64,000 nt of DNA from Chitinophagales bacterium. GTDB taxonomy: Bacteria > Bacteroidota > Bacteroidia > Chitinophagales > Chitinophagaceae. The stretch spans positions 12,551-76,550 of the forward strand of contig JANPKD010000028.1 of NCBI GenBank assembly GCA_031425835.1. The letters are read 5' to 3'. A program made the position numbers and the translations under genes. Shown piece after piece: positions 25,709 to 42,551 of the stretch. Every line of letters begins with the position of its first letter. Positions within the stretch are counted from its first letter, which is position 1. The notes beneath the pieces are model-generated. The model was not told the origin of the DNA and made no database searches. It saw only the letters and a program-made list of their open reading frames with translations.

Positions 25709-26053
25709 TCAGAAAAAATTATCCAGTGATTTAAGGCTGATTGGTTTCTCCCAAATGGTAAGTCTTGCGCCGTCAAGTTCAGAGGGCATGGTAGGGCGGA
25801 AGGCACTTATAAGATGGAACTCCACATCGGGATACCGCTGGTACAATTCGGGCAGTTTATCCCAGCCCAGTCCATCGGGTAAATTATAGTCTATAAAAAG
25901 ATAGTCTGGCTTAAGTTCACCCATGCGCACCACGCCGTTGGCTAGGGTGTGAGCTATATGAACGTCGTAGTTTTTGCGAAGGAAATACGTCTTCATAAGA
26001 AGACATAGATCTACTTCGTCATCGATTATCAATACTTTTTTTCTATTTGTCAT
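25709..26053 (-). CDS. Stand-alone response-regulator receiver protein (CheY-like)
   Basis: 114 aa with KKVLIIDDE, phospho-acceptor context LFIDYNLPDG and no output domain. Confidence 0.85.
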   Translation of the reverse strand: MTNRKKVLIIDDEVDLCLLMKTYFLRKNYDVHIAHTLANGVVRMGELKPDYLFIDYNLPDGLGWDKLPELYQRYPDVEFHLISAFRPTMPSELDGARLTIWEKPISLKSLDNFF

Positions 26054-26077
26054 AATGTTTGCTGCCGCTATTCATCC

Positions 26078-26092
26078 TAAATTATCGTACCA
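26078..26092 (-). promoter_or_regulatory. Variant -24/-12-type element TGGTACG-ATAA-TTTA upstream of the receiver gene
   Basis: 24 nt upstream of the ATG at 26053. It shares the 8-mer GGTACGAT with the sites at 26198 and 36414. Confidence 0.45.
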
Positions 26093-26197
26093 ATGCCGAA
26101 ACCAATAACTGTACCGGCTAACTCCAAAATTATGATTCATCTGTAGAATTATGTACCTAACTTTCTTTTCGAAATTGATAAACAACACTGCTAAACT

Positions 26198-26212
26198 TGG
26201 TACGATTATTTA
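26198..26212 (+). promoter_or_regulatory. Variant -24/-12-type element TGGTACG-ATTA-TTTA upstream of ytxH-like gene
   Basis: 45 nt upstream of the ATG at 26258, divergent from the copy at 26078-26092. Confidence 0.45.
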
Positions 26213-26257
26213 AACAATTTAGCTACATCATTCATTTACCTTAAAAATATTAAAGCT

Positions 26258-26515
26258 ATGACAACACAATCGAAAATTATCCTTGGTTTAGTAGGCGCCG
26301 CTGCAGCGGGTGTAGTAGTAGGTCTTCTTTTAGCACCTGATAAAGGTTCTGAAACTGTGAAGAAAGTAAAAGACACAGCTGGTACCTGGGCCGAGCATCT
26401 TACCGACCTGTTTGCAAACGCAAAAGATGAGGTGAGCAACCTTACAAAGAAGGGGTCCCGCGTTGCATCCGAAGCCGGAAACAAGTACAACAATATCACA
26501 GAAAGCTATAGCTAA
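26258..26515 (+). CDS. YtxH-domain general-stress-type protein
   Basis: 85 aa. N-terminal TM LGLVGAAAAGVVVGLLLAPDKGSETVKK, followed by an amphipathic helix. Confidence 0.8.
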   Translation: MTTQSKIILGLVGAAAAGVVVGLLLAPDKGSETVKKVKDTAGTWAEHLTDLFANAKDEVSNLTKKGSRVASEAGNKYNNITESYS

Positions 26516-26520
26516 GCAAA

Positions 26521-26666
26521 AAAGAGGCTGTATCAAAAAGGGCTAGCAGGTGTGCCAAAACAATAAAGTACGGTGTTTTAAATCTCTGCTTTAAAACCTT
26601 GGGCCTGCCGCCAGCTATCACCTAGCCTGCGGTGAACCCTACCGGTTGATACAGCCTTTTTATTTT
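26521..26666 (+). other. Long closed stem enclosing a ~108-nt structured insert, followed by a T-tract (complex terminator, attenuator or palindromic element)
   Basis: AGGCTGTATCAA (26525-36) pairs perfectly with TTGATACAGCCT (26646-57), and the flanking A/T runs extend the stem. Nested stems GGCTAG..GTG/CACCTAGCC occur inside. Two inner hairpins, AAAACA/TGTTTT and GTTTTAAA/TTTAAAAC, are mutually exclusive. Confidence 0.45.
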
Positions 26667-26690
26667 CTCTCAACAAAGAAATTACACGTA

Positions 26691-27065
26691 ATGACTGAGT
26701 TTACCAAGCAGCCTCCTGAGGAAAAAATTGGCTTGTCTCAATCGGCCGCGCAACTAAAAGCAACTGCAACCGATTATGCGAAAACATACGGCAAGCTTGT
26801 AAAGGCAAAGGTTACAAGGGGTGCTTCCGATGCCGCGGCGGGTGTTGCTATTGCAGTTGCCGCATTGTTATTCACTGTATTCTTTTTCATTTTTTCATTT
26901 ACAGGTTTGGCCCTGTGGCTGGGTGGTTTGCTAGGCAGTATTGCGGCAGGCTTCTTTTGTATTGCGGGCTTCTTTTTGTTTTTGCTGATTTTAGTTTTTG
27001 CACTGCGCAGAAAAGTTATTATTCCATTTATAAGGAACACGATTATTTCAAAAGTGTATGAGTAA
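26691..27065 (+). CDS. Phage-holin-family / Holin-X-like small membrane protein
   Basis: Two TM helices (AAAGVAIAVAALLFTVFFFIFSF, LLGSIAAGFFCIAGFFLFLLILVF). It is a common partner of YtxH genes. The start is moved to the ATG at 26691 because upstream codons translate the stem at 26646-57. Confidence 0.65.
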   Translation: MTEFTKQPPEEKIGLSQSAAQLKATATDYAKTYGKLVKAKVTRGASDAAAGVAIAVAALLFTVFFFIFSFTGLALWLGGLLGSIAAGFFCIAGFFLFLLILVFALRRKVIIPFIRNTIISKVYE

Positions 27066-27456
27066 AATAAAAACTTACGACGACTTATTACAGGAGGAAG
27101 AAAAACTTTTGGCCCAACTAAAATTGGGTGAGGCAAAACTAAAAACCGATATAGCAGGCGTGCGACAACGGCTAGAGCCGTTGGGCAGGGTGATGAAAAT
27201 GGTAAATAAATTCACTACGCGAGATAAGACGGGTGGCCTTTCAACCTTCGGCCTCGATTTTAGCATAGATCTTTTAGTACGCCGCGTACTGCTTGCAAAA
27301 GCGGGATGGTTTACTAAAATACTTGTCCCCTATCTCATAAAAAATTATGGATCGCATATCATCTCCGAAAAACAAAGGGCGAGCCTTTTTACAAAGATCA
27401 ATGCTGTTTTAAGCAAAATACGCCCTAAACGAAACGTACAGGATAATTATAATTAA
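27058..27456 (+). CDS. Hypothetical protein, translationally coupled to the preceding gene
   Basis: Its ATG at 27058 overlaps the preceding stop at 27063-65 (ATGAGTAA). 132 aa with a coiled-coil-like N-terminus. I recognise no family. Confidence 0.55.
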   Translation: MSKIKTYDDLLQEEEKLLAQLKLGEAKLKTDIAGVRQRLEPLGRVMKMVNKFTTRDKTGGLSTFGLDFSIDLLVRRVLLAKAGWFTKILVPYLIKNYGSHIISEKQRASLFTKINAVLSKIRPKRNVQDNYN

Positions 27457-27568
27457 ATGGGCAACTTAGGTCATGGACAAAAGCTGATTCCCAGCACTCT
27501 TGATTTTCATTTTTTCGCACTTGCCTAATTCTTAAAAAGAAAATGAGCGTGTCCGTTCGGTATGTTTT

Positions 27569-27583
27569 TGGCTACGCTGTATC
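27569..27583 (+). promoter_or_regulatory. Variant -24/-12-type element TGGCTAC-GCTG-TATC
   Basis: 32 nt upstream of the ATG at 27616. This is the weakest member of the family. Confidence 0.25.
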
Positions 27584-27615
27584 TGATACTACATTTCTAA
27601 TCTAAATGTGCAATC

Positions 27616-27876
27616 ATGCAAAACGTAAATGATCCCCGCAAAACAAATAATAATGCAGCGCCACTACCCAGGCATGATTTACCCATGCATGCAACTGCAA
27701 AACACAATGGTGATGACGAATCACTTGAAAGTTCCTCACCCAATGATACACGCTCAGATGAAAAAGTAATAGTAAATGAACAACGTGGTAATAAAACTGT
27801 AAATGAGCCATCGCAAACCGCTCCCAATACCAGCGAGGATATCAGCAGTGATGAAGAAATTGTAAACCAGCCATAG
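27616..27876 (+). CDS. Small hydrophilic acidic protein, likely disordered
   Basis: 86 aa rich in N/D/E/S/P, followed by a clear intrinsic terminator, which supports transcription. I recognise no family. Confidence 0.45.
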   Translation: MQNVNDPRKTNNNAAPLPRHDLPMHATAKHNGDDESLESSSPNDTRSDEKVIVNEQRGNKTVNEPSQTAPNTSEDISSDEEIVNQP

Positions 27877-27950
27877 ATGGTAATAAAAACTGTTCCCGGT
27901 AGTGGTGTTTTCCAGGTGGATGTGATAAAAGAAATACCGGGACCATTAAT

Positions 27951-27980
27951 AGCGCTGCATCTGCAGCGCTATTTTTTTTT
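27951..27980 (+). terminator. Intrinsic terminator
   Basis: AGCGCTGCA-tc-TGCAGCGCT palindrome (27951-70) followed by A-T9. Confidence 0.75.
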
Positions 27981-28247
27981 AACAACCCATGCTGCCGCCT
28001 ACTAAGAAAACCACAGCAACGATGAAGTAAAATGTATGTGCCCGAGGGTTGTGCTCCGGGGGTGTAGATGCTTAGAAAATTACCTCAACGCTCGGTGTGC
28101 CAGCTGATCGAGCCTATTACAAACGCAGGTATTATGCGTATTCATTCAATAACTTTTATGGCGGAAGGCTCAAAGGCTTGTGGTACCACAGGAATAATCC
28201 TGGAATAACTCATGGACCACCTCTCGTCAGGAAATAGCTTGCCGGGT

Positions 28248-28415
28248 CTACTCAACTCTTCTAAATCCACCAACAATTAAAGTGAGTACGAAAAGTATTA
28301 AAAAAATGTAGAAGAATATTTTTGCAACTGAAGTGGTATCTGCCGCTACGCTACCAAACCCAAATATGGCTGCTATTATCGCTACAACCAGGAAAATCAA
28401 TGTCCACCGTAACAT
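28248..28415 (-). CDS. DUF1328/UPF0391-type small membrane protein (55 aa, absent from the ORF track)
   Basis: Hand translation gives MLRWTLIFLVVAIIAAIFGFGSVAADTTSVAKIFFYIFLILFVLTLIVGGFRRVE, with the stop TAG at 28250-28248. It has the two-TM architecture and the FGF motif typical of YtjA-like proteins. Confidence 0.75.
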   Translation of the reverse strand: MLRWTLIFLVVAIIAAIFGFGSVAADTTSVAKIFFYIFLILFVLTLIVGGFRRVE

Positions 28416-28457
28416 GCTGATAAAATTTATTGGTTAAAAGATGTTCTACTACTCTTT

Positions 28458-28472
28458 GAAACAATTGTACCA
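28458..28472 (-). promoter_or_regulatory. Variant -24/-12-type element TGGTACA-ATTG-TTTC upstream of the DUF1328 gene
   Basis: 42 nt upstream of the ATG at 28415. Confidence 0.4.
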
Positions 28473-29061
28473 GTTTGCTGAATGGGATGAGCAATTTTTT
28501 CATTCAACAAATTGGACCTCCATTGAGGAAAAATTTCTACCAAGAGGCAAAAAAAAACAACCTCAACAACCTACACTTGAGCGCAAAAACATGGTATGTT
28601 TTTTACACTATTATTCAAATCATTCGATACTTACGACTATTTGCTTCAGCAATTATTATTTTAAAATGAGCACATCCAGCAACAGAAATCATTCAATTTT
28701 AAAAACTGCAAGCCCCGGCAAACCCACTGTTCCATTTGGCCGCCAGCCATCTCCAGGGCAAAAAATCAATGATCCGTCGTCCTCATATCCCAAAGAGGAG
28801 CACTACCCCATCCCCTCTTTTTTAAAGTACACGATGAAAGCGTCTGAATTGGAATTGAGATCATAACTTAACCCTGGCCTGCTTGCCCACTTCAGGACGG
28901 CATCTTTGTGGAAAAAATCCTTTTCCTGTAGAGCCTTCTCCCCACTTTTCGGTGTATTTTCATAAACCTACATCCAGCTAGTCCCCGACTACCGGCCTCA
29001 TTGATAAATTTTTCCTTACTGGTAGCAAGTTCTGGCGAACTGTAGCATTAAAACCAATTTT

Positions 29062-29076: not shown

Positions 29077-29105
29077 GTTCCATTTAAGGCCAAAATACAA
29101 GCGTC

Positions 29106-30521
29106 ATGATGAATCAACACCTTGCACAAAAACAAAGAATTAAAATTCTGCCTCAGCAAATTCAGTTACTCAATTTTTTTCATCTCAACACTCTGGAACT
29201 GGAACAACGAATTGAGCAGGAAATGGAGGACAACCCATTGTTGGAGGATCAGAACACCGAGTTTGAAGCCGACTCGGATAAGTTTAACAAGGACTCTGTT
29301 CAGGATTACCAGGATTGGGAAGAGCATGGCTACGACGATATACCCGACTACAAATTTGAGTACCAAAACTACCTGCACAACGACAAAGTACCCGAGCGGC
29401 CAATCTCGAACAGTTATGATTTTCGCCTGGCTTTAAAAGAACAGTACTGCGTAACTACAACCGAAGAGAAAGAAATTGTCTTCGCCCATTTTATAATTGA
29501 TTCGTTATCCGACGCAGGTTTGATGGAACAAAAGCTTGAAAGCCTTGCCGAAGACCTTTCGTTTAAATTGCACCGCTGGGTTGAAGAAGCCGATTTAGAG
29601 GCAATACTTTTAAAAATCCAGCAATTAGAACCTATTGGTATTGGCGCACGCAGCATTAAAGAATGCCTGTTGATACAGTTGCAACGCATGAATACAAAGC
29701 GGCCGGATGTAAAAACTGCCATTAACCTGCTCGATCAGCATTTTAATGATTTGCACAACCGCAACATGGACAAGATAAAAGCCCATTTAAACATTGATGA
29801 GGAAGAGTTGAAAATTGTTTTGCGATTGATTGCTTCACTAAAAATGCGCCCTGTTTGCGAAACGCAGGAAGGTGTGAACCAGAACATTATTCCCGATTTT
29901 ATAGTAACAAGAGTGGGCGACAATATTGAGGTGCAACTTTTTCGGCAGCGCAGCGAGGGCTTGAACATCAATACATCGTGGAAAGAAATGGCCGAGAATA
30001 ACGCCAAGGTTACTACCGATAAATCAGCCGTGCAGTACATCAAAAACAAATTGCAGTCGGCCCAGTGGTTTATACACGCAGTACAGCAAAGAGAAAGTAC
30101 TATGCTAAAAATAATGCGGTCGATTGTGGAAATGCAATTTGAATATTTTGTGACCGGGAACATTAACCTGCTTCAACCAATGATATTGAAAAACATTGCT
30201 GAAATAGTTGGGGTTGATATTTCAACCGTATCGAGAATTACCTGTAACAAGTACGCCGAAACACCTTTTGGATTAATATTGCTTAAAGATCTTTTTACCG
30301 AAGGTATCGCCAATCAAAAAGGCCAGGTCATCAGTAATAAGGTCATTCAATCGGCAATAGAAGAAGTAATAGAAACCGAAGACAAACATAATCCCTACAC
30401 CGATCAGCAACTGGTTAAAATCTTGAACCAAAAAGGATTTTCGGTTGCCCGGCGCACAGTGGCCAAATACCGCGAGCAGTTGCAAATACCGGTTTCGCAT
30501 GTCCGTGGTTTATGGGCATGA
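29106..30521 (+). CDS. rpoN: RNA polymerase sigma-54 factor
   Basis: Region I Q/L-rich start (LAQKQRIKILPQQIQLLNFF), acidic region II, core-binding region, HTH, and the RpoN box ARRTVAKYREQLQIP. Confidence 0.95.
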   Translation: MMNQHLAQKQRIKILPQQIQLLNFFHLNTLELEQRIEQEMEDNPLLEDQNTEFEADSDKFNKDSVQDYQDWEEHGYDDIPDYKFEYQNYLHNDKVPERPISNSYDFRLALKEQYCVTTTEEKEIVFAHFIIDSLSDAGLMEQKLESLAEDLSFKLHRWVEEADLEAILLKIQQLEPIGIGARSIKECLLIQLQRMNTKRPDVKTAINLLDQHFNDLHNRNMDKIKAHLNIDEEELKIVLRLIASLKMRPVCETQEGVNQNIIPDFIVTRVGDNIEVQLFRQRSEGLNINTSWKEMAENNAKVTTDKSAVQYIKNKLQSAQWFIHAVQQRESTMLKIMRSIVEMQFEYFVTGNINLLQPMILKNIAEIVGVDISTVSRITCNKYAETPFGLILLKDLFTEGIANQKGQVISNKVIQSAIEEVIETEDKHNPYTDQQLVKILNQKGFSVARRTVAKYREQLQIPVSHVRGLWA

Positions 30522-30588: not shown

Positions 30589-32079
30589 ATGCAAACCATT
30601 TTAATTATTGATGACGACAGGGACATGTGTATGTTACTTAAACGCTTCTTAACCCGTCATGGCTACGAAGTACTGGAAGCCTACACAGGCAAAAAATCGT
30701 TAGAACTCCTGGAAACTGTTGAGCCTTCGTTGGTGATGTGCGACTTTAGATTAGAGGACATGGAAGGCAATGTACTGCTTGCAAAAATAAAAGAACGTTA
30801 CCCGCATCTGCCCGTGATTATTATCACCGGCTATAGCGATATTAAAATGGCTGTGGAAGTAATGAAAATGGGCGCCTACGATTACATAACTAAGCCACTG
30901 TTTCCCGATGAAATTTTAGTGACTATTAAAAAAGCATTGGAGGCCGCCACCAAAGAAGCCAATGCACCTATCGGCAGTGTAGCCACCACCGCGGCAGCGC
31001 CACAAAAAACCGACCGACCTGCCTCCACCTCCACCGAAAAGCAACCGGTAATAACTGTTTCCGGCGATTATATTTTTGGCGACACGCCTGTATTCCGCCA
31101 AATTTTGCAGCAAATAGATTTGGTTGGCCCGACTAATTATACCGTTATCATTAATGGTGAAAGTGGCAGCGGTAAAGAAGCCGTGGCACAGGAAATTCAT
31201 AAACGCAGTAAAAGAAAGTCGAAACCATTCGTAGCAATTGATTGTGGTGCTTTATCTAAAGAGCTGGCGGGAAGCGAATTATTTGGTCACGAAAAAGGAT
31301 CATTCACCGGGGCACTCAATCAAAAAATGGGTTCGTTGGAAATGGCCAACGGCGGCACCATTTTTTTGGATGAAGTGGCCAACCTTTCTTACGATATTCA
31401 GGTGTCGCTGCTACGCGTGGTGCAGGAAAGAAAAATGCGCCGCGTAGGTGGTTTGAAGGACATTGAACTGGATGTGCGCATTATTATTGCCAGCAACGAA
31501 AAATTGTGGGATGCCGTACGCAAAGGCAAGTTTCGTGAAGATTTGTACCACCGCTTCAATGAATTTGGCATCGACATACCACCGCTGCGCCAACGGCCCG
31601 ATGACATCATGCTCTTCTCCAACCATTTTCTACAACAAACAAACGCCGAACTGGGCAAAAATGTAAAACGCTTTAGTCCGGAAGTGGAAAACATCTTTCG
31701 CACTTATGTTTGGTATGGTAACCTTCGGGAGTTGCGTAATGTAATTAAACGGGCCACTTTGCTGAACGACGGCGAAGAAATAGAAGCCAATTCCCTTCCA
31801 TTTGAAATAGCGCATTTCAGCAAACTACAATTTGATGCGACGCCAGAGCCGGCTGCGACCAATTCTATTCCTACCATTGCTACCGAAATTGCCGACTCGC
31901 CACGTAACATTTCGGAAACCACGTTAAAAGGCGCGAGTATAGATGCGGAATATGAAATGATTTTGAAAGCACTTAAAAAAGTAAACTTCAATAAAAGCAA
32001 AGCCGCCAAACTGCTGAACATTGACCGCAAGACTTTGTATAATAAAATGAAGCAGTACCAGGAATTCAACAACCAGTAA
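30589..32079 (+). CDS. Sigma-54-dependent response regulator (NtrC-type: REC + AAA+ + Fis-type HTH)
   Basis: REC (ILIIDDDRDM, CDFRLEDMEG). Walker A GESGSGKE, GSFTGA (a GAFTGA variant), Walker B FLDEV, and the arginine finger region. C-terminal HTH KSKAAKLLNIDRKTLYNKMK. Confidence 0.92.
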   Translation: MQTILIIDDDRDMCMLLKRFLTRHGYEVLEAYTGKKSLELLETVEPSLVMCDFRLEDMEGNVLLAKIKERYPHLPVIIITGYSDIKMAVEVMKMGAYDYITKPLFPDEILVTIKKALEAATKEANAPIGSVATTAAAPQKTDRPASTSTEKQPVITVSGDYIFGDTPVFRQILQQIDLVGPTNYTVIINGESGSGKEAVAQEIHKRSKRKSKPFVAIDCGALSKELAGSELFGHEKGSFTGALNQKMGSLEMANGGTIFLDEVANLSYDIQVSLLRVVQERKMRRVGGLKDIELDVRIIIASNEKLWDAVRKGKFREDLYHRFNEFGIDIPPLRQRPDDIMLFSNHFLQQTNAELGKNVKRFSPEVENIFRTYVWYGNLRELRNVIKRATLLNDGEEIEANSLPFEIAHFSKLQFDATPEPAATNSIPTIATEIADSPRNISETTLKGASIDAEYEMILKALKKVNFNKSKAAKLLNIDRKTLYNKMKQYQEFNNQ

Positions 32080-32093
32080 AACACCAAGGTTTT

Positions 32094-32567
32094 ATGCCCG
32101 ACCGAGCCGTGATTGATGCTGCAGCAACGCAGCCAGCCGAACAACATGGGGAGAAAAAGGTGTTTGTTGATTTAAATAAAATCATACAACAATGCCTTCT
32201 GAATTCTAGTTCGCTACAACGTGACCCCCGACCGGTTGTACGCTGTAGTAACCTCCCCGAAGTGGAGGGGGATGAGAGTGTCTTTGTTCGTCTGTTCGAT
32301 TTGCTGATCAAATCAATATTTAATCACCCGCCACCAGGTAAACAGCTTTTCCTGCATGTTGATTGCGAGCGGGTAAAGCAAATGCCTGCGGATGTTTCAG
32401 GTTTTCAAATAGACTTTTATACCAACCTGATTATTACAGACGACTGGATTGTAAAATACCAGCAATCCCTTTCACAGTGTCAAACAGAACTTGCGGAAAA
32501 CAATGCTGCACTCAAAATACACAATCCTCCTTCGCATGCCCGTTTGTTTACCATAACCTACCATTAA
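32094..32567 (+). CDS. Hypothetical protein, possibly a degenerate histidine-kinase ATPase-like domain
   Basis: 157 aa. LFDLLIKSIFNHPPPGKQLFLHV resembles an N-box region, but no G1/G2 nucleotide-binding boxes or HisKA are visible. Confidence 0.45.
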   Translation: MPDRAVIDAAATQPAEQHGEKKVFVDLNKIIQQCLLNSSSLQRDPRPVVRCSNLPEVEGDESVFVRLFDLLIKSIFNHPPPGKQLFLHVDCERVKQMPADVSGFQIDFYTNLIITDDWIVKYQQSLSQCQTELAENNAALKIHNPPSHARLFTITYH

Positions 32568-34254: not shown

Positions 34255-35178
34255 TTAAGTATCCAATCTTGACTGAGGTATTTCCTTCGCCTCTTGTTTT
34301 ATTATGAAAACGGCGGTTTGTTTGGGTCTTATTCCTTCGCCGGCGTGCAGTGCATACACTTTTGTGAACTCGGCCCCGTAATACAAAATGGCCGCCGAAT
34401 AATATACCCAAGTGAGAATGATAACGATTGATGCAGCCGTACCATAGGTAATGTCCAACCCCGATTTGCCTAAGTACAGGCCAATAAGAAAACGACCCAA
34501 TAAAAACAGCGAAGCCGTAAGCGATGAGCCAATCAATGCATCTTTCCAGGAAATAACCGCATCGGGCAGTACCTTAAAAATTACTGTGAATAATCCTGTA
34601 ATTACAACCAGCAAAATGATTGTGTTGATAAATTGAAATAAGGACAGTGTATAGTTGGGAATAACCTTTATCAATTTATCGCTAAGCAGCTGCAGTAGCG
34701 TATTTAATATAAGCGATACGAGGAGTAAAAATCCCAAACCCACTATCAATGAAAAAGAGATAAGCCGGTTAAATAAATATTTCAACCAACCCTTTTTTGG
34801 TTTTGCCTTAACCGACCAGATAAAGTTAATTGAGCTTTGCATTTCGGTAAAGACACCGGTGGCGCCAATGATCAATATAACCGCACCGATGATCGCTCCG
34901 GCCGTTGTTGATTGTGTTTGTTGCAGGTTACTAATAATGCTTTGAATTTGAAGCGCTGCATCGCTGCCCACCACCCCACTTAACTGGCTATAAATTCTAC
35001 CCTGCGCGGCTTCGCGTCCAAAAAAAATACCGGCAAGCGAAATAACTATTATCAGCAACGGGCATAATGCAAACACGGTATAGTAACTCAGCGAAGCGCT
35101 GAATTTAAAAGCATCATCGTCAATAAAATTATTACCAGCCTCTCCAAGCAGGCCAAACAATTTTTTTAGTGGCTTCAT
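34255..35178 (-). CDS. YihY/BrkB-family membrane protein
   Basis: FKFSASLSYYTVFALCPLLIIVISL plus about six TM helices and ILYYGAEFTKVY near the C-terminus. Confidence 0.85.
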   Translation of the reverse strand: MKPLKKLFGLLGEAGNNFIDDDAFKFSASLSYYTVFALCPLLIIVISLAGIFFGREAAQGRIYSQLSGVVGSDAALQIQSIISNLQQTQSTTAGAIIGAVILIIGATGVFTEMQSSINFIWSVKAKPKKGWLKYLFNRLISFSLIVGLGFLLLVSLILNTLLQLLSDKLIKVIPNYTLSLFQFINTIILLVVITGLFTVIFKVLPDAVISWKDALIGSSLTASLFLLGRFLIGLYLGKSGLDITYGTAASIVIILTWVYYSAAILYYGAEFTKVYALHAGEGIRPKQTAVFIIKQEAKEIPQSRLDT

Positions 35179-35341: not shown

Positions 35342-35719
35342 TTAAGTGAAGGATGCAAGGCCGCTTAAGTTATTTGAGCACTGACGACAAATGCGTGCAC
35401 ACTCTTTAAAACTTTCGGCATGCTGGGTTTCGCAAAGCTCGGCGCATTCCTCGCATATGCCAATGCAAAGCAGCGCCATGTTACCAACGTTTTGCGAGTT
35501 ACTTTTTATTGCATGAAAAGTACCCATACAGATGGCCGCACATTCATCAACTATGCGTACAACCCTGCGGGAGAAATAATGTTGCACATCGGCGATAGAA
35601 ACCAGCAGGTTTTCGCAATTCATCCAGGCTTCAAAACAGGTTTGTGTTTGCAGGCGGGTAGCTATCATAAATAAATCTTGAAGTGGTTTTAAAAATCCCG
35701 CCTCTGTTAAGAAAGGCAT
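35342..35719 (-). CDS. Cys-rich four-helix-bundle protein (DUF326 / copper-storage-like)
   Basis: Repeated C...C..C motifs: CFEAWMNC, ECAAIC, LLCIGICEECAELC, ECARICRQC. The start could instead be the internal Met 17 codons downstream. Confidence 0.75.
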   Translation of the reverse strand: MPFLTEAGFLKPLQDLFMIATRLQTQTCFEAWMNCENLLVSIADVQHYFSRRVVRIVDECAAICMGTFHAIKSNSQNVGNMALLCIGICEECAELCETQHAESFKECARICRQCSNNLSGLASFT

Positions 35720-35785
35720 AAGCGCTTTTCAACAATACCTATCGCCGCAAAGCAGGCATTCTAAATGGCAATTCTTGTTTTAAAA

Positions 35786-35800
35786 GAAAATAGCTTGCCA
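35786..35800 (-). promoter_or_regulatory. Variant -24/-12-type element TGGCAAG-CTAT-TTTC upstream of the DUF326 gene
   Basis: 66 nt upstream of the ATG at 35719. Confidence 0.35.
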
Positions 35801-35860
35801 AATATGTTGACCACTGTACTGTGTTTGCCGACCTGCGCTTGGGTAGATAATTCTACAAAA

Positions 35861-35910: not shown

Positions 35911-36375
35911 TTAGCTTGCAGCTCTCTGCAAATCACGCAGGCGTTTTACTTCATCGTGCCCTTGTCTTAAAGCGGCTTTCTGACGAACAACCAACTCCCT
36001 AACCGAAGGATCTAACTCCTCATCTGCATTGAGTGCCGTGTCGTAAGCTTTTTGTGCAGCGTCTTCGCCAAACTCACAGTTTTCTAAAACGGCCTTACGG
36101 TCATGACCACTTACTGCTGCTTTCAAATCCATCCACACACGGTAGACTTTACCAGAGTTGGTTGTGCCTTCGGCAGGTTCGCCACCCATGGCCGACACTT
36201 CCTGTGTTAGCTCCTGGCCATATTGGCGACTCTCTGTTACATACCTTTGAAATAAAGTTTTTAGATCGTTGTCTTCGTCCTTCAGTTCATCAATTGCTTT
36301 TTCGTACCCAACCACACGGTCGTGGTTAATGCGTATCAGGTCATTAAGAATGCCTATTGTTTTTTCGTTTGCCAT
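35911..36375 (-). CDS. PA2169/DUF2383-family ferritin-like four-helix-bundle protein
   Basis: LNDLIRINHDRVVGYEKAI...FQRYVTESRQYGQEL...CEFGEDAAQKAYDTAL pattern, 154 aa. Confidence 0.8.
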   Translation of the reverse strand: MANEKTIGILNDLIRINHDRVVGYEKAIDELKDEDNDLKTLFQRYVTESRQYGQELTQEVSAMGGEPAEGTTNSGKVYRVWMDLKAAVSGHDRKAVLENCEFGEDAAQKAYDTALNADEELDPSVRELVVRQKAALRQGHDEVKRLRDLQRAAS

Positions 36376-36399
36376 AAGTTTATATTTTAGTTAGGCTAT

Positions 36400-36414
36400 C
36401 AAAAAATCGTACCG
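36400..36414 (-). promoter_or_regulatory. Variant -24/-12-type element CGGTACG-ATTT-TTTG upstream of the DUF2383 gene
   Basis: 24 nt upstream of the ATG at 36375. The TTTTGAT-N22-ATG geometry is identical to the site in front of the DUF892 gene. Confidence 0.45.
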
Positions 36415-36507
36415 CAGTTATCAGCCGTCAGAAGTCAAAGGTCAGAGGTCAGAGTAGTAGACTTTGAACTTTTGACTTTGACCTTGTACTTTTACCTCAG
36501 AGCTACT

Positions 36508-37590
36508 TTACACCAACTCTTTTAAAATTTTCATCAACACTTTTTCTTCTGTTGTAAGCCCGGTAAGATTGTCGGGTTGTTCAATTTTGTCTAACTCTTT
36601 AAGGTATTTGCTCAAGTTCTTTTCCTCATACAATTTGATAATGCCCGGATGCACATAATATTTTTTACAAACCGTACGGCTGTTGCCTAATTTTTTGCTC
36701 ACTTCATCCAGCGCAGCAACTACATTTTTTTTTGAAGCGCTTTCCGATTCAGCTTCGCCAATTGATTGAAAAGCACGAATGATATTGAGTGTGCCCGCCC
36801 AGGTTCTAAAATCCTTTGCACTAAAATCGCCGCCCGTTGCGTCCTTTATGTATTTGTTTACCATGCCGGAGTCTACTGATTTTCTCTGCCCATCGTCATT
36901 GTAAAACTGAAACAACTCTTTGCCCGGAATTTCGCGACACTGCTGTACCATACGTGCCAGCCGCGGATGCCGCAACGATATTTCGTGCTCCACACCTTTT
37001 TTTCCTTTAAAAGAAAAATGCACCGAGCTGCCTTTAATTTTTACATGTCCATCTTTCAATGTTGTTAGGCCATACGAGCCGTATAATTTTTCGTAACCAT
37101 CGTTACCAATGCGGATATAGGTGCGTTCCATTAGGCCAATCACCGTGGCAATCACTTTTTCCTCACACAACTCTTTCCGCACCATATCCTCCTCCATTTT
37201 CATGCGCATGGAAGGCAGTAGTTTTCCAAATTCATACAGTCGGTGAAATTTTGTTTGGTTGCGCATTGAGTGCCAGAAAGCGTGGTAGCGATATTGTTTT
37301 CGACCACGGACATCAATGCCTGTGGCTTGTATGTGGCCATCGTCGGTGGCGCAGATCCAAACGTTTTCCCAGGCAGGTGGAATGGCTAATTTTTTTATTC
37401 TTTCCAACTCGGCTTTTGATTTTACCGACTTTCTATTAAGTACGTAAACAAAGCCGCTTCCTTTTTTTACACGATTAATGCCTTCGTCTTTGTCTGTTAC
37501 ATAATGCAGGTCGGCAGCCTTGGCCGCCTTTCCATAATCTTTATCAATCTTTAAAAACTCTTTGTGCGAAAGTTCAACAAGTGTTTCCAT
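36508..37590 (-). CDS. Type IB DNA topoisomerase (bacterial poxvirus-like TopIB)
   Basis: LHYVTD...GINR...GFVY......IKKLAIPPAWENVWIC....GHIQATG.D.RGRKQYRYH N-terminal domain. The C-terminal catalytic region includes FRTWAGT and the terminal tyrosine context KKYYVHP. The start is moved to the ATG at 37590 (METLVELSH), which removes the overlap with the upstream gene. Confidence 0.85.
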   Translation of the reverse strand: METLVELSHKEFLKIDKDYGKAAKAADLHYVTDKDEGINRVKKGSGFVYVLNRKSVKSKAELERIKKLAIPPAWENVWICATDDGHIQATGIDVRGRKQYRYHAFWHSMRNQTKFHRLYEFGKLLPSMRMKMEEDMVRKELCEEKVIATVIGLMERTYIRIGNDGYEKLYGSYGLTTLKDGHVKIKGSSVHFSFKGKKGVEHEISLRHPRLARMVQQCREIPGKELFQFYNDDGQRKSVDSGMVNKYIKDATGGDFSAKDFRTWAGTLNIIRAFQSIGEAESESASKKNVVAALDEVSKKLGNSRTVCKKYYVHPGIIKLYEEKNLSKYLKELDKIEQPDNLTGLTTEEKVLMKILKELV

Positions 37591-37600
37591 ATTACTGCAT

Positions 37601-38137
37601 TTATCTTGGGGCATCGTGCCTGCTTTCCATTTTTGTTTCGTGTAGTTCGGCGGCATCTTCAACCGAGTGAGAGGCGTGTAGATCGTCTTCTTTTTTTGCA
37701 AGCTGCGCAAGTTTTACATAAAAGTCCTTAAGTAGTTCAAGTTCGGTTTGCGTTAAATCTTCACCCACAATTAAACGGTTGCTTGCTCTGTCACTTGTGG
37801 CAATTAGTTCATTCAGTTTTAACTGTATTGCCATAGAATCTTTGTTTTGTGATTGCTGGATTAAAAACACCATTAAAAAAGTAACGATGGTAGTACCCGT
37901 ATTTATGACCAGCTGCCAGGTATCAGAAAAACGAAAGATGGGACCCGTTACTGCCCACACTAGTATAATGGCTGTGGCAAGTAAAAATGCAGTTGACGAT
38001 CCTGTAGCTTTTGTTATAGCACCGGCAACCCGCTCAAATTTTGAATGATTGGTGTTGCCGCGTTGACTAACAGCGTTAAGTTCATTTGCCGCAGCATGTA
38101 ATACTTCGTCTTCTTCTTTTTGAAAGCCTGCCCTCAT
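37601..38137 (-). CDS. Low-affinity iron permease family membrane protein
   Basis: FERVAGAITKATGSSTAFLLATAIILVWAVTGPIF.FSDTWQLVINTGTTIVTFLMVFLIQQSQNKD signature. The ATG at 38137 is preferred over the TTG at 38161 used by the ORF track, because the TTG lies inside the predicted promoter. Confidence 0.8.
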   Translation of the reverse strand: MRAGFQKEEDEVLHAAANELNAVSQRGNTNHSKFERVAGAITKATGSSTAFLLATAIILVWAVTGPIFRFSDTWQLVINTGTTIVTFLMVFLIQQSQNKDSMAIQLKLNELIATSDRASNRLIVGEDLTQTELELLKDFYVKLAQLAKKEDDLHASHSVEDAAELHETKMESRHDAPR

Positions 38138-38157
38138 AAAAAATTTATCGATCACGT

Positions 38158-38172
38158 GCAATGATAAAGCCA
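38158..38172 (-). promoter_or_regulatory. Canonical sigma-54 promoter TGGCTTT-ATCA-TTGC(A) for the iron-permease / TopIB operon
   Basis: Exact GG-N10-GC spacing and a TTGCA -12 box. The predicted start site is near 38146, 9 nt upstream of the ATG at 38137. Confidence 0.65.
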
Positions 38173-38572
38173 GACCCTAAAGTCGGACTGTATGTATGGC
38201 GGGGACGGATCATTCGATTAGTTTTTTTCAGTTTTTTTCACCGAACATTTGTCGCAGTAATTCCGGAGTTATGTTTCTCTTTCACTGCTTCAGTTTATAG
38301 CATCGGGGGGCCACATACAAGGCAACCGGTGTTTATGAACGCTTTAAAAAATCAGAAATCTTAATGACCATCACTTGCCAAGGGGCAGCTAATTCAACAA
38401 CAACGTAATTAATTGTCAGAATCAAAGTTCTATGTGTCCGCACTGTGTCTTGCAATTGCTGCGTGGGTCATTACGATCGTATGTACTGGGTTGCAGTGAG
38501 GTGCAAATGTGTGTAGATAAACTTCCACAGCGAGCGGGGGCTTGTGGCTTTCTATAAAGGCAAGGCTGATTG

Positions 38573-38618: not shown

Positions 38619-39110
38619 ATGGCTGCTCATTACCAACTCAATTTTATACAGGATAAAATTGCACAAATCCAAAGTGCAATTTGCTTCAATCTAAGTGATT
38701 CTGTTTTAAAGTTACCTACCAGTGTTATTACAACTTTAAAGGTTGATGACTATGGCTTCGTGTGGTTTATGATGCAAAAGCCAAAGCAGTGTTTGAAGGA
38801 ATTTGAGGATGAGTTTCCGGTACGCCTTGATTATTTCAAAAAAGGAATCAATTCGTTTTTACAGGTGTCGGGTAAGGGATGTGTCGTATGCGACCCGGAG
38901 GAACTAAACACCCTCGGTTTATCGGACGACGCATTCAAATCCTTCAATGCTCAAAAAGATGTGCTGGTAAAAGTAAAAATATTGAAGGCAGAATGCTACG
39001 ATACTACACCCACCTCCAGCCACTCCTGGTTTAAAAACCGGTTAACAGCAATTACAAAATGGCTGCATCACAATAATTATGGACGACAAATTTATTATCC
39101 AGCCTCCTAA
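38619..39110 (+). CDS. Pyridoxamine-5-phosphate-oxidase-like / general stress protein 26-like protein (tentative)
   Basis: 163 aa with a split-barrel-like pattern (VITTLKVDDYGFVWFMM...FLQVSGKGCVV...VKVKILKAECY). The assignment rests on resemblance only. Confidence 0.5.
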   Translation: MAAHYQLNFIQDKIAQIQSAICFNLSDSVLKLPTSVITTLKVDDYGFVWFMMQKPKQCLKEFEDEFPVRLDYFKKGINSFLQVSGKGCVVCDPEELNTLGLSDDAFKSFNAQKDVLVKVKILKAECYDTTPTSSHSWFKNRLTAITKWLHHNNYGRQIYYPAS

Positions 39111-39122
39111 AAATATTTAAGT

Positions 39123-39899
39123 ATGCATGTAATATGGTCTGGCGCAATAAGCTTTGGTTTAGTAAATATTCCCGTTAAATTGAGTAGTGCAGTTGAAAGC
39201 GGAAGTGAATTGAACTTCGACATGCTTTCTAAAAAAGACATGGCACCGATACGTTACGCAAGAATTGATACGAAGACTGAAAAAGAAGTTGAGTGGAAAA
39301 ATATTGTAAAGGGTTATGAGTATGCCAAAGGAAAATATGTTGTGATTACAGATGAGGATTTTGAAAAAGCCAGGGCCGAAAAATCGCACACGATAGAAAT
39401 TCTGCAGTTTGTAAAAGAGGAAGAGATTAACCCTATTTACTACGAAAAGCCCTACTATGTTTCTCCCGATAAAGGCGCCGGCAAATCGTACCAGCTAATT
39501 ATAAAGGCACTTGAAAAAACCAAAACGGTTGGCCTTGCCGAGTTTATGTTGCGTAACCGCATGCACCTCTGTGCTTTAAAAGTACACGAGGGTGTTTTGT
39601 TGCTCAACCAAATGCGCTACCACGATGAGTTGAGGGAGGTGCCCGCCATCGCCGGTACTAAAGCCGAAATATCCGTGAAGGAAGTGGACCTGGCAGTAAA
39701 ACTAATTCACCAGCTTACCGAAAAGTTTGAGCCAACCGCTTTCAAAGACAATTATATAGCCGCTCTAAAAAAAGTGATAAAATCAAAAGCCTCAGGCAAA
39801 ACTCTGCGCATAGCCGAACCTGTAAAAAAATCGGCCACAGTAAAAGATTTAATGGAGGTGCTCAAACAAAGCCTCGAAACAAAAAAGAAAACGGCCTAA
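39123..39899 (+). CDS. ku: Ku protein (non-homologous end joining)
   Basis: IWSGAISFGLVNIPVKL.SA......F.ML.......IRY.......KEVEW..IVKGYEY..GKYV core, with a basic C-terminal tail. Confidence 0.93.
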   Translation: MHVIWSGAISFGLVNIPVKLSSAVESGSELNFDMLSKKDMAPIRYARIDTKTEKEVEWKNIVKGYEYAKGKYVVITDEDFEKARAEKSHTIEILQFVKEEEINPIYYEKPYYVSPDKGAGKSYQLIIKALEKTKTVGLAEFMLRNRMHLCALKVHEGVLLLNQMRYHDELREVPAIAGTKAEISVKEVDLAVKLIHQLTEKFEPTAFKDNYIAALKKVIKSKASGKTLRIAEPVKKSATVKDLMEVLKQSLETKKKTA

Positions 39900-39960
39900 C
39901 GATTTTTTTCCTTCTGCATGCGCACTTGCAACTTTGTAAACGCCACAACATTTTCGCACC

Positions 39961-41664
39961 ATGTCACTTTCAGTTTACAATAAAAAAAGAAATTTTAAAG
40001 TCACCACTGAACCCGTTGGAAAAGAAAAAACGGCAAAAGGCAAACTCCGGTTTGTTGTTCAAAAACACGACGCCTCGCACCTCCACTACGACTTTCGGTT
40101 GGAGATAGAAGGTGTGCTAAAAAGTTGGGCGGTACCAAAGGGCCCGTCGCTAAACCCAGCCGACAAACGGCTTGCAATGGCCGTGGAAGATCATCCTTTC
40201 GATTACAGAAATTTTGAGGGAATTATACCGGAAGGCAACTATGGTGGCGGCACGGTAATCGTTTGGGATGAAGGCACATACCAACCAGTTGGGGGGGAGC
40301 ATTTAACAAAAGCCGAACAGGAAAAATTACTCCTTACCCAACTAAAAGACGGCAGCTTAAAAATTATTGTACATGGAGAAAAGTTAGGCGGCGAGTTTGC
40401 TTTGTTTTTAATGAAGGGCCGTGGCGAACGGTCGTGGATATTGATGAAAAAGAAAGATGAGTTTTCCACCACCGCAAATGTTCTATTGGAGGATGCCTCG
40501 GTAAAATCGGGAAAAACGCTGGCCGAAGTAGCCGCTGAAAATGGTACGGTAATCAAACACCCCGAAGAAGCAAAACCCAGTAAAAAAGAAAAACCAAAAG
40601 CACCGGAATTATTGCCTAAAAAAACAGCAGCAGGCAAAAAAACAAAAGCGCCGAAACAAAAAACAACATCTGAAACTGTTGCGGGTAAAAAAAAGAAGGC
40701 GTCTCCAAAAATAAAAACATCGGGGCTGCAGATAGACATAACTGCGGGTGCCGATCAGACAATTGTTATCGATAAACATGAGCTGACTATTACCAGCCTC
40801 AATAAATTGTACTGGAAAAAAGAAAAGTTTAGCAAGGGCGATACCATCAATTATTATTTGCAGGCAGCACCCTATATTTTGCCGTACATGATCGGCAGGC
40901 CACAATCGCTCAACAGGCACCCGAACGGAATTGATGGACCCAGTTTTTATCAAAAAGACATGAAGGGAAAACTGCCGGAGTGGATGGAAACGCACAAAGA
41001 CTTTTCTGAATCAACCAGCAAAACAGTGGAGTATTTGGTGTGCAGTAACGAGGCAACTTTAATTTACATGGCCAATTTGGGTTGTATAGAAATGCATCCC
41101 TGGCATTCGCAAACGGCAAACTGGCAAAACCCTTACTGGTGCCTGATTGACCTGGATCCCGATACAAAAAACAGTTTTGCCCAGGTGATGGAAACAGCCC
41201 TGGTTACAAAAAATATTTTAGACGATATAGGTGCGGACAGTTACATAAAAACCTCAGGCTCCACGGGGCTCCATATTTATATTCCACTTGCCGCGCAATA
41301 CAGTTTCGATCAGTCGAAACAATTAGCCGAACTGGTTGTAAATCTTGTAAACGACCAGCTGCCTGAAACAACAAGCGTTGAACGAACACCGGCAAAAAGA
41401 AAAGGGAAAATTTATCTTGATTATTTACAAAACCGGGAAACCCAAACCGCAGCGGCGCCATATTCTTTACGGCCAAAACCTGGGATGCCTGTATCAACCC
41501 CCCTGCATTGGAGCGAAATAAAAAAAGGTTTGACGGCAACTACATACAACGCAAAAAATATTTTTGAACGTTTAAAAACCGAAGGTGATTTGTTTGCCCC
41601 CGTTTTGGGGAAAGGCATCAACCTGAAAAAAGTATTGGCTAATTTAACGGCCTTAATAAAATGA
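39961..41664 (+). CDS. ligD: LigD-type protein with 3-prime-phosphoesterase and polymerase/primase domains but no ligase domain
   Basis: PE domain RFVVQKHDASHLHYDFRLE..GVLKSWAVPKGPS. A Lys/Pro-rich linker follows. Pol domain LTITSLNKLYW...GRPQSLNRHPNGI...FYQKD...IDLDPD...SGSTGLHIYIPL...KIYLDYLQN. I see no adenylation KxDG motif anywhere in the 567 aa. Confidence 0.88.
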   Translation: MSLSVYNKKRNFKVTTEPVGKEKTAKGKLRFVVQKHDASHLHYDFRLEIEGVLKSWAVPKGPSLNPADKRLAMAVEDHPFDYRNFEGIIPEGNYGGGTVIVWDEGTYQPVGGEHLTKAEQEKLLLTQLKDGSLKIIVHGEKLGGEFALFLMKGRGERSWILMKKKDEFSTTANVLLEDASVKSGKTLAEVAAENGTVIKHPEEAKPSKKEKPKAPELLPKKTAAGKKTKAPKQKTTSETVAGKKKKASPKIKTSGLQIDITAGADQTIVIDKHELTITSLNKLYWKKEKFSKGDTINYYLQAAPYILPYMIGRPQSLNRHPNGIDGPSFYQKDMKGKLPEWMETHKDFSESTSKTVEYLVCSNEATLIYMANLGCIEMHPWHSQTANWQNPYWCLIDLDPDTKNSFAQVMETALVTKNILDDIGADSYIKTSGSTGLHIYIPLAAQYSFDQSKQLAELVVNLVNDQLPETTSVERTPAKRKGKIYLDYLQNRETQTAAAPYSLRPKPGMPVSTPLHWSEIKKGLTATTYNAKNIFERLKTEGDLFAPVLGKGINLKKVLANLTALIK

Positions 41665-42551
41665 CCATGCACCCCTCACTAACGGTGTTTGATAACGAAG
41701 TAGCACAATACATACATACAGATTTTGAAATTGAAACGCTTACCAACGATTGTGGCTTCACCGAAGGACCGGTATGGAATGCTGATGGTTTTTATTTATT
41801 CAGCGATATAGAACACAACGTTGTGTACAAAATTTTCCCTGGCAAAAAGAAAAGCGTTTTTATAGACAATAGCGGCACCGAAAATATTAATGACCCGGAT
41901 CTAAAACCCGGGCAAATCGGATCGAATGGTTTGGCGTATGATGTGAACGGGCAACTCCTCGTTTGCAGGCATGGTAGTCATTGCGTGTCGTATGTAAGCA
42001 ACAACGTTTTACAACCATTGTTTGAAACTTTTGAAAACAGGCCTTTCAACAGTCCTAATGATATTGTAGTACATAAAAACGGCAGCATTTATTTTAGCGA
42101 TCCGCCATATGGATTAAAAGATGGCCAACTGAATCCAAAAAAGTTTCAACCCCAGGCCGCCGTGTATTGTTTTAGAAATGGTGCATTGAAAATTATTTGT
42201 AACACCTACCAGTATCCTAATGGTGTCTGTCTTTCTGCAAATGAAAAATTGCTGTACATCTGCTCAAACAAACCATTTGAAAAATTTATTTCGTTGTACG
42301 ACACCGAAACGAATGCTTTCATCAAAACTTTTGCGGAAGAAAACAGTGATGGAATAAAATGCGACCGAAACGGAAATGTGTATCTCTGTAGTAAAGACGG
42401 TATCATTATTTTGAACAACACGGGAAAACGATTGGCGTTGATTGCATTGCCAACACAACCGGCCAACATTTGCTGGGGCGGAAGCAACACAAACGACTTG
42501 TTTATTACTGCAAGAGAAAATATTTTTTTGATACGCAACTTGCAGAAGTAA
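41661..42551 (+). CDS. SMP-30/gluconolactonase/LRE-family beta-propeller protein
   Basis: GFTEGPVWNADGFYLFSDIEHNVVYKI, NSPNDIVVHKNGSIYFSDP and PNGVCLS motifs. Its start overlaps the ligD stop (ATGA). Confidence 0.85.
   Translation: MTMHPSLTVFDNEVAQYIHTDFEIETLTNDCGFTEGPVWNADGFYLFSDIEHNVVYKIFPGKKKSVFIDNSGTENINDPDLKPGQIGSNGLAYDVNGQLLVCRHGSHCVSYVSNNVLQPLFETFENRPFNSPNDIVVHKNGSIYFSDPPYGLKDGQLNPKKFQPQAAVYCFRNGALKIICNTYQYPNGVCLSANEKLLYICSNKPFEKFISLYDTETNAFIKTFAEENSDGIKCDRNGNVYLCSKDGIIILNNTGKRLALIALPTQPANICWGGSNTNDLFITARENIFLIRNLQK

Follow-up and report, generated by a model that had tools for sequence, protein, structure and literature searches.

A proposed general-stress regulon around rpoN in a Flavisolibacter-like bacterium, dependent on sigma-54 and on a -12 element specific to the lineage

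The window analysed here is a stretch of 64,000 nucleotides (nt) from a Chitinophagales bacterium (Chitinophagaceae; assembly GCA_031425835.1, contig JANPKD010000028.1, positions 12,551-76,550 of the forward strand). Its subject is an island at 25.7-42.6 kb of the window, with outliers at 18286 and 49184, in which about twenty stress-survival genes adjoin rpoN, the gene for sigma-54. Sequence comparison suggests that most of these genes stand behind one conserved sigma-54-like promoter type, and the region is probably the core of a two-component-gated, sigma-54-dependent general-stress/dormancy regulon with a lineage-specific -12 element. To our knowledge, RpoS, sigma-B and EcfG are all absent from the Bacteroidota, a phylum dominant in soil, water and gut, for which a regulator of general stress has yet to be assigned. 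Within the Chitinophagaceae the source organism is Flavisolibacter-like, with an RpoN that shares 87% identity with the RpoN of a soil metagenome-assembled genome (MAG) and 83% with the one from F. ginsengisoli. Gene assignments come from Pfam, NCBIfam and PDB searches.

A conserved promoter motif, its upstream palindrome and the adjacent regulators

Upstream regions in the window show a recurring sequence, tTGGTACGAT-N2-TTT(A/G). With one mismatch allowed, TGGTAC-N5-TTT occurs 43 times against 24 expected, a count reached by 0 of 100 shuffled sequences, and matches of at least 9 bits to a family-balanced matrix built from orthologous sites number 52 in the 64 kb (21 in shuffles). The six best matches (at least 15 bits) are all intergenic, correctly oriented and located 23-60 nt from the start, upstream of a short-chain dehydrogenase (SDR), a single-domain response regulator (REC), YtxH, DUF2383, the GSP26-Ku-LigD-SMP30 operon and DUF892. 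In all, at least ten transcription units carry tGG(T/C)A(T/C)GAT-WW-TTT(A/G) at 35-75 nt upstream of the start codon: SDR, REC, YtxH/YqjE-like/u132, two small hydrophilic proteins, DUF1328, a Csp3-like protein, DUF2383, GSP26-Ku-LigD-SMP30 and DUF892. These distances are compatible with the initiation ~12 nt downstream that a sigma-54 promoter would require. The sites of DUF1328, the Csp3-like gene, the 66-residue open reading frame (ORF) and u86 are weaker; both outliers carry the motif. (A sigma-70-type promoter scan of the window yields no enrichment, 40 against 38, as expected for Bacteroidetes.)

Promoters, with window coordinates:
18248-18263, plus strand: SDR promoter, TGGTATAATAATTTAG; 16.6 bits, outside the training set
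26077-26092, minus strand: REC promoter, TGGTACGATAATTTAG; 18.2 bits, conserved in orthologues, with equivalents in Flectobacillus major (locus L080) and a Saprospiraceae MAG (locus L081)
26198-26213, plus strand: promoter of YtxH/Holin-X-like/u132, TGGTACGATTATTTAA; 19.8 bits
27558-27573, plus strand: variant promoter of u86, CGGTATGTTTTTGGCT; orthologues keep aGGTAYAGTTTTT
28457-28472, minus strand: DUF1328 promoter, TGGTACAATTGTTTCA; 11.7 bits
28592-28607, plus strand: promoter of the 66-residue ORF, TGGTATGTTTTTTACA; fifteen orthologous sites
35785-35800, minus strand: weak promoter of the Csp3-like gene, TGGCAAGCTATTTTCT
36399-36414, minus strand: DUF2383 promoter, CGGTACGATTTTTTGA; 17.5 bits
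38573-38588, plus strand: GSP26 operon promoter, TGGTACTCAATTTGAA; 15.6 bits
49757-49772, minus strand: DUF892 promoter, TGGCATTATTTTTTTG; 15.8 bits

A genome scan with RpoN provided 78 loci of up to 21 kb each (1.23 Mb in all) for comparison within the Chitinophagaceae. Throughout Flavisolibacter, Cnuella, Flaviaesturariibacter and relatives, synteny extends to REC, YtxH, u132, BrkB, DUF326, DUF2383, TopIB, the iron permease, GSP26, Ku and DUF892. The initial annotation had the stress genes clustering around rpoN and called for a synteny comparison; both the housekeeping nature of the island's flanks and the retention of the same genes round rpoN in dozens of related genomes bear the clustering out.

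The motif is conserved along with the genes that it precedes. It is found upstream of orthologues of YtxH in 39 of 42 loci, of GSP26 in 19 of 23 (as TGTGGTATyyAATTTGGA, with cTGTAGAgTTTTTTACAC 50-58 bp upstream) and of DUF892 in 13 of 15 (as TGGCAYtatATTTTA); the corresponding figures for control genes are 2/24 for citrate synthase, 0/23 for LptF/G, 4/73 for rpoN itself and 3/65 for the activator gene. Anchored alignments have the motif block nearly invariant in surrounding intergenic DNA that has diverged, each gene family keeping its own variant: (C/G/A)GGTAYGRTTTTTT is conserved upstream of DUF2383 in ~40 loci, and 33 orthologous DUF1328 sites, outside the training set, read TATGGTAYrrTTCTTTAA at 58-60 nt from the ATG. 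The 1.23 Mb contain 292 sites of at least 13 bits, and at 202 of them the gene that follows is an orthologue of a stress gene of the window; the DUF1328 (33) and small-ORF (15) sites among these 202 were not used for training. The rest precede genes for lmo0937-like 48-residue membrane proteins, a 96-residue membrane protein, an OmpA-like protein, a further COG3871-like protein, and lysine-/serine-rich basic and hydrophilin-like proteins. By this conservation, the motif-bearing genes are a predicted regulon and not a coincidence.

Two of these additional families have recurrent settings. In L001-L003 and other loci of relatives, BrkB has as its divergent neighbour, ~6 kb downstream of rpoN, the lmo0937-like 48-residue gene, whose promoter reads TGGCAA-N5-TTT; the gene for the 96-residue membrane protein carries the motif in 23 loci of relatives.

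The motif has a candidate enhancer upstream. The palindrome TGTAGAATTAT(G/C)TAC occurs in exactly two copies in the window (26142 and 35843), and across loci 17% of motif sites have GTAGA-N4-9-TCTAC (1.9% in shuffles), its centre lying 45-55 bp before the TGG and ~75 bp before the presumptive start. It is present at 4-5 promoters and in Flectobacillus, at a distance that fits an enhancer. The palindrome concentrates at the divergent pairs REC/YtxH and GSP26/DUF892, each pair having one in common (in relatives DUF892 is divergent from GSP26, with the palindrome common to both); at divergent promoter pairs GTAGAA-N4-TTCTAC lies ~50 bp upstream of the motif. Related TGTAGAA half-sites are found upstream of u86 and BrkB.

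Palindromic sites, with window coordinates:
26142-26156, plus strand: TGTAGAATTATGTAC, an exact match and a candidate site for the activator, flanked by the divergent promoters of REC and YtxH
35843-35857, minus strand: TGTAGAATTATCTAC, exact, upstream of the Csp3-like promoter
38512-38529, plus strand: TGTAGATAAACTTCCACA, imperfect, upstream of the GSP26 promoter
49842-49855, minus strand: degenerate upstream site before the DUF892 promoter

Directly upstream of the DUF2383 promoter are tandem repeats, (GTCAGAG)x4 and (GACTTT)x5, at 36427-36492; relatives such as L016 have other short repeats (TTGACC/ATTGAC) at that promoter position. These repeats may be a structural or protein-binding element in place of a palindrome.

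The machinery to serve such promoters is encoded in the middle of the island, where four genes on one strand, separated by short gaps, form an apparent operon:
29106-30521, plus strand: rpoN (sigma-54); Pfam AID 5e-11, CBD 6e-41, DBD 2e-51
30589-32079, plus strand: NtrC-type enhancer-binding response regulator (the activator); Pfam REC, AAA+ and HTH_8
32094-32567, plus strand: u157, a 157-residue ORF between activator and kinase; no family match in Pfam or NCBIfam
32584-34026, plus strand: soluble hybrid sensor kinase; Pfam REC, PAS, HisKA and HATPase

RpoN aligns over its full length with the E. coli and Klebsiella sigma-54 structures (E 3e-60), and its RpoN box (ARRTVAKYR, which reads the -24 element) is intact, with VARRTVAKYREQLQIP aligning with the E. 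coli sequence; an exact look-up found no identical protein on record. The activator has a GSFTGA loop (GAFTGA class), the Walker A sequence GESGSGKE and a Walker B region FLDEV, and matches the NCBIfam ntrC model at 5e-115, below the equivalog cut-off. The order rpoN then activator, usually followed by a kinase, is kept down to 49% RpoN identity within the family, and rpoN-activator adjacency is found in 65 loci and five further contigs. A PAS kinase occupies the place of u157 in Flectobacillus, and u157 weakly matches the N-box region of that kinase (E 0.01); u157 is therefore probably what decay has left of the catalytic domain of a histidine kinase.

Outside the family, the module recurs on contigs whose RpoNs are more distant. 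In Flectobacillus major (Cytophagales) and the Saprospiraceae MAG, the gene order is REC (leftward), YtxH (rightward), REC plus CHASE3 kinase (leftward), rpoN, activator, PAS kinase and REC-PAS kinase, and both have the motif upstream of REC. On two other contigs rpoN and then the activator stand beside trehalose/glycogen genes in one case and beside PRC-barrel and small proteins in the other; none of the contigs examined, with RpoN identities as low as 40%, departs from the adjacency of rpoN and activator. The activators of the window and of Flectobacillus are 59% identical, with a near-identical HTH_8, and their RpoNs only 41%; the activator is thus the better conserved of the two. In Flectobacillus, TTGGCACGAAAATTTAAC lies 60 bp downstream of the palindrome TGTAGAAATACTTCTACA.

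These two elements of Flectobacillus belong to a minus-strand segment (14640-14800 of L080) in which a hairpin and a T-run follow the promoter-like sequence ~60 nt later. The arrangement suggests that this promoter type also drives a small RNA.

Proposed sigma-54 character of the motif and competing explanations

In its architecture, the motif combines an invariant GG (and A) with a T-rich block one helical turn away at fixed spacing, which is sigma-54 geometry. In its 5' half the motif agrees with TGGCACG(A/G), the extended -24 consensus, with one pyrimidine replacing another at some sites (TGGTAT at 100 sites, TGGTAC at 56, TGGCAT at 35 and TGGCAC at 10); it reads TGGCAC in Niastella-like loci, in Flectobacillus and in L082, and extends to TGGCACGA in the Niastella-like Ku promoter and in Flectobacillus. 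The spacing of 10 nt from the GG to -12 is kept, but the positions themselves read TTT(A/G), with C at -12 at a frequency of 0.08.

A change in sigma-54 itself may account for this departure. The helix-turn-helix (HTH) of the window's RpoN reads DISTVSR; by alignment to PDB sigma-54, I372 occupies the position of E. coli E378, and the R383 equivalent is kept. According to Glyde et al. 2017 (PMC5505868), E378 and R383 are highly conserved, both crosslink to DNA, and the promoter contacts of the HTH lie around -14. Ile is found at the E378 position in 74 of 74 Chitinophagaceae RpoNs; one Cloacimonetes RpoN keeps Glu. In a wider set of 141 RpoNs, taken from the 150 nearest 50%-cluster representatives (33-51% identity; those named include Flectobacillus and Saprospiraceae), 135 have I, V, L or M at this position, so the change is lineage-wide and not peculiar to the island. 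The -12 element would accordingly read TTTA instead of TTGC as a consequence of a hydrophobic I372 where E. coli has the DNA-proximal E378.

We infer that sigma-54 holoenzyme occupies the motif and the activator the palindrome, under the control of kinase and REC and with a stress-protective output. In this scheme the REC-PAS kinase, probably with the regulon-encoded single-domain REC, would sense an intracellular cue through its PAS domain and phosphorylate the activator, which would bind the palindrome and spend ATP to open closed sigma-54 holoenzyme complexes on the motif. The output would serve cells that are desiccated or not growing, through stabilisation of membranes, buffering of metals and redox state, and DNA repair by nonhomologous end joining (NHEJ). 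The proposal in the initial annotation that sigma-54, or a sigma-54-like mechanism, has taken over the general-stress role finds support at the sequence level in the clustering, the motif geometry, the palindrome and the recurrence of the module in two further orders.

A number of observations weigh against this reading. The GC at -12, which defines sigma-54 promoters, is absent from the motif. Canonical TGGCAC-N5-TTGC is not enriched in the window (76 matches, 79 expected), which is the reason for turning to a variant, and the exact canonical pattern occurs 0 times in the 1.23 Mb; in favour of sigma-54, exact TGGCAC-N5-TTTA occurs 11 times there, against 1 in shuffles. There is no palindrome at the DUF2383, DUF1328 and small-ORF promoters, and no convincing motif upstream of BrkB (1 of 36 orthologues) or of iron permease/TopIB. 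What ties the activator to the promoters is adjacency and co-conservation; sigma-54 dependence and start sites are predictions from sequence; and the genes are assigned their stress roles on the strength of homologues that belong to other phyla.

To these objections belongs the resemblance of the 3' block, T(A/T)nnTTT(A/G), to TAnnTTTG, the consensus of the Bacteroidetes primary-sigma -7 box (PMC7366714), at REC (TAATTTAG), GSP26 (TCAATTTG) and DUF892 (TATATTTT). The resemblance favours an explanation, on the whole unlikely, in which the motif is a -7 box for primary sigma (of the sigma-ABfr type) joined to the site of some other stress regulator, or else the promoter of another alternative sigma, and the position of rpoN is a historical accident. 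The missing -12 GC speaks for it too, as does the existence in B. thetaiotaomicron of PM2, an unassigned class of stationary-phase/oxidative-stress promoters (PMC7366714). This explanation has to contend with the invariant GG and A at a fixed helical turn from TTT, which is sigma-54 geometry, with variants that read TTGGCACGA, the canonical extended -24 element, and with the YtxH and DUF1328 variants, which do not fit TAnnTTTG. Moreover, a conserved -33 element at 17-23 nt is lacking, the information at positions -6 to -1 does not exceed 0.14 bits, and motif, palindrome, rpoN and activator are co-inherited across three orders.

It is also conceivable, though improbable, that the promoters do depend on sigma-54 but are served by another activator or by the product of a second rpoN, while the kinase and activator of the island control something else. 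F. ginsenosidimutans is listed with two full-length rpoN genes (FSB75_09255 and FSB75_14580) and 9 activators, and 6 of 13 Chitinophagia genomes are listed with two full-length rpoN genes (PMC12316311, supplementary tables), which counts against the island's own rpoN and activator as the sole controllers; the motif promoters that have no palindrome point the same way. No second rpoN paralogue was seen among the 120 closest orthologues listed (78-96% identity), a set confined to closest orthologues, in which such a paralogue would not show. Neither a neighbour-joining tree of 184 RpoNs nor two cluster look-ups place the window copy as primary or second rpoN, and by the same analyses the clade of rpoN-linked activators is broad. 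On the other side stand the unbroken adjacency of rpoN and activator down to 40% RpoN identity, the persistence of the regulon genes REC and YtxH beside this pair across orders, and the joint conservation of the palindrome and the DNA-binding helix of the activator. That the stress genes came together by chance or by horizontal acquisition, and have no regulation in common, is highly improbable. Some island members do lack the motif, and GC content, being unremarkable, argues neither way, but synteny in dozens of genomes with housekeeping flanks, the motif at orthologous positions and its presence at both outliers led to rejection of this explanation.

A broader version of the sigma-54 proposal extends it to the phylum: Bacteroidota sigma-54 (at least in Chitinophagales, Cytophagales and Saprospiraceae), with E378 changed to Ile/Val, would read TGGYAY-N5-TTTA, and its ancestral core job with the adjacent activator would be the phylum's general stress/dormancy response, covering membrane proteins, hydrophilins, ferritin-like proteins and NHEJ. 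Taken with that coverage, this extension is tentative, and somewhat less probable than its failure.

Relation to known systems

The proposed system is likely to be of the known sigma-54/enhancer-binding-protein kind, with a core promoter that is altered and a physiological role that is new. Neither a sigma-54 stress regulon nor a general stress regulator of Bacteroidota, nor this motif, turned up in full-text literature searches. A 2025 comparative sigma-54 study (PLoS One) predicts, from consensus-derived matrices, control of heat-shock chaperones in Bacteroidota; that paper and its tables do not mention the COGs/families of the island.

The closest parallel in logic is the HK2-Rrp2-RpoN(-RpoS) pathway of Borrelia burgdorferi, in which a two-component NtrC-type activator and sigma-54 switch a global adaptation programme (PMC2940757 and PMC4014564). 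In Borrelia, however, sigma-54 drives essentially one canonical promoter, that of rpoS, and RpoS then runs the regulon, whereas here ~ten or more effector operons would carry a sigma-54-like promoter directly, with a non-canonical -12 and no RpoS.

In content, the island is reminiscent of general stress responses run by other factors. YtxH, YdaG/GSP26 (COG3871), the YdaD-type SDR and lmo0937-family small membrane proteins belong to the sigma-B regulon of Bacillus/Listeria; sigma-B is a sigma-70-family factor under RsbV/W partner switching, in contrast to the enhancer-dependent mechanism proposed here. Ku/LigD, DUF892 (YciE/F), DUF1328, PRC-barrel and YqjD/E-type families are effectors of the RpoS and EcfG regulons (E. 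coli RpoS; alphaproteobacterial PhyR-NepR-EcfG), and entry into the PhyR-NepR-EcfG response is likewise gated by two-component-type signalling. Those systems differ in using RpoS or an extracytoplasmic function (ECF) sigma with -35/-10 promoters, and the island has no PhyR, NepR or ECF genes: among the window ORFs scanned (14.7-62.3 kb), genes of the sigma-70 family, RsbV/W, PhyR and NepR were not found. The resemblance to sigma-B, RpoS and EcfG responses lies in effector content only.

With the classical sigma-54 modules (PspF/psp, RtcR/rtcBA, NorR, ZraR), the island has in common sigma-54 and an AAA+ activator with a GAFTGA-type loop; binding of the activator to upstream palindromes and tight off/on control would be further common features. 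Those modules serve one or two operons in response to a specific insult and use TGGCAC-N5-TTGC; the island, unlike them, would be a multi-operon general-stress regulon with TTTA at -12. Sigma-54 variants that read altered nucleotides in the -12 region, with dedicated activators, have a precedent in the RpoN paralogues of Rhodobacter/Cereibacter sphaeroides. (RpoN3 of that organism is treated in PMC11999139.) The altered HTH residue described here differs in being lineage-wide (135 of 141 related RpoNs) and not limited to one paralogue.

If the proposal is correct, it names a switch (rpoN, one activator and kinases), a cis code (motif and palindrome) and a first regulon, and it suggests how general stress protection is switched on in a phylum that lacks the customary sigma factors for stress. 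It would also link one HTH residue of sigma-54 to -12 specificity and would mean that sigma-54 promoter searches based on the canonical -12 GC miss a whole promoter class in Bacteroidota.

Genes of the island and its surroundings

The genes other than those of the rpoN operon are, with window coordinates:
18286-19152, plus strand: YghA/YdaD-type SDR, outlier; Pfam adh_short_C2 1e-59, full-length NCBIfam PRK06701, PRK06128 and PRK07985
25709-26053, minus strand: single-domain response regulator (REC only), regulon member; Pfam Response_reg
26258-26515, plus strand: YtxH; Pfam 56.7 bits
26646 or 26691 to 27065, plus strand: Holin-X/Phage_holin_3_6/YqjE-like membrane protein; Pfam 24.4 bits, below the gathering score
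27058-27456, plus strand: u132, a 132-residue protein with no assigned family; third gene of the YtxH operon
27616-27876, plus strand: u86, an 86-residue hydrophilic protein (from translation); terminator at 27948-27973
28248-28415, minus strand: DUF1328; Pfam 5e-13
28666-28866, plus strand: 66-residue hydrophilic ORF, divergent from DUF1328
34255-35178, minus strand: BrkB/YihY membrane protein; Pfam 7e-48
35342-35719, minus strand: Csp3/DUF326-like Cys-rich four-helix protein; weak Pfam DUF326 match, PDB Csp3 matches
35911-36375, minus strand: DUF2383; Pfam 2e-30, terminator at 35889-35862
36508-37590, minus strand: TopIB; Pfam
37601-38137, minus strand: low-affinity iron permease; Pfam 4e-53
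38619-39110, plus strand: COG3871/GSP26-like split-barrel protein; Pyrid_ox_like 20.7 bits, below cut-off, for the single sequence
39123-39899, plus strand: Ku; 6e-52
39961-41664, plus strand: LigD; phosphoesterase 7e-42, primase-polymerase 6e-87
41661-42551, plus strand: SMP-30/SGL (gluconolactonase); Pfam
49184-49732, minus strand: DUF892 (YciE/F-like), outlier; Pfam 4e-58

Nearly every family named in the initial annotation is confirmed by Pfam, NCBIfam or PDB, with the correction that position 25709, where the island was taken to begin with YtxH, is the end of the REC gene. (The REC-only protein is 76-86% identical in relatives.) The GSP26 assignment gains from orthologues: 16 of 16 match Pyrid_ox_like (best E 1e-10), and their profile matches PDB 2i02, a 'general stress protein of COG3871', at E 7e-5. 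LigD stands as regards its phosphoesterase and primase-polymerase domains; an ATP-dependent ligase domain was not found by Pfam in the 567-residue protein, so a ligase for NHEJ would have to be encoded elsewhere.

YtxH, the Holin-X-like gene and u132 overlap or abut and are syntenic, forming an apparent operon (26258-27456, plus strand). GSP26-like, Ku, LigD and SMP-30 form a four-gene operon (38619-42551, plus strand) with gaps of 13 and 62 nt and then a 4-nt overlap, and iron permease followed by TopIB (36508-38137, minus strand) probably share one transcript. The u86 and 66-residue ORF products, both behind motif-type promoters, are small, very hydrophilic, probably disordered and hydrophilin-like; the latter and its relatives have a C-terminal YPIPSF(L/F)(K/E)Y in common.

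Upstream of the iron permease, TGGCTTTATCATTGCA (38157-38172, minus strand, 35 nt before the ATG at 38137) combines a canonical -12 TTGCA with a poor -24 half. Because relatives have an intrinsic-terminator hairpin, GCCAGGCC...GGCCTGGCTTTTT, at the same spot, this sequence is not accepted as a canonical promoter.

The island is flanked by housekeeping genes (citrate synthase, LptF/G, Tgt and RsmG) and a galactofuranose and glycosyltransferase cluster. That cluster, which separates the island from DUF892, includes UDP-galactopyranose mutase and a GT1 glycosyltransferase, and adjoining these a 727-residue fusion (42716-44899, minus strand) of a GH1-like N-terminal half with an RmlD-type dTDP-4-dehydrorhamnose reductase. 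Between the SDR outlier and the island, a full-length thiamine pyrophosphate (TPP) riboswitch (64 bits; 19275-19373, plus strand) has no plus-strand gene behind it; since rsmG (19402-20190) and a GT2 glycosyltransferase gene, which come next, have the opposite orientation (minus strand), it aims into the 3' end of a convergent gene.

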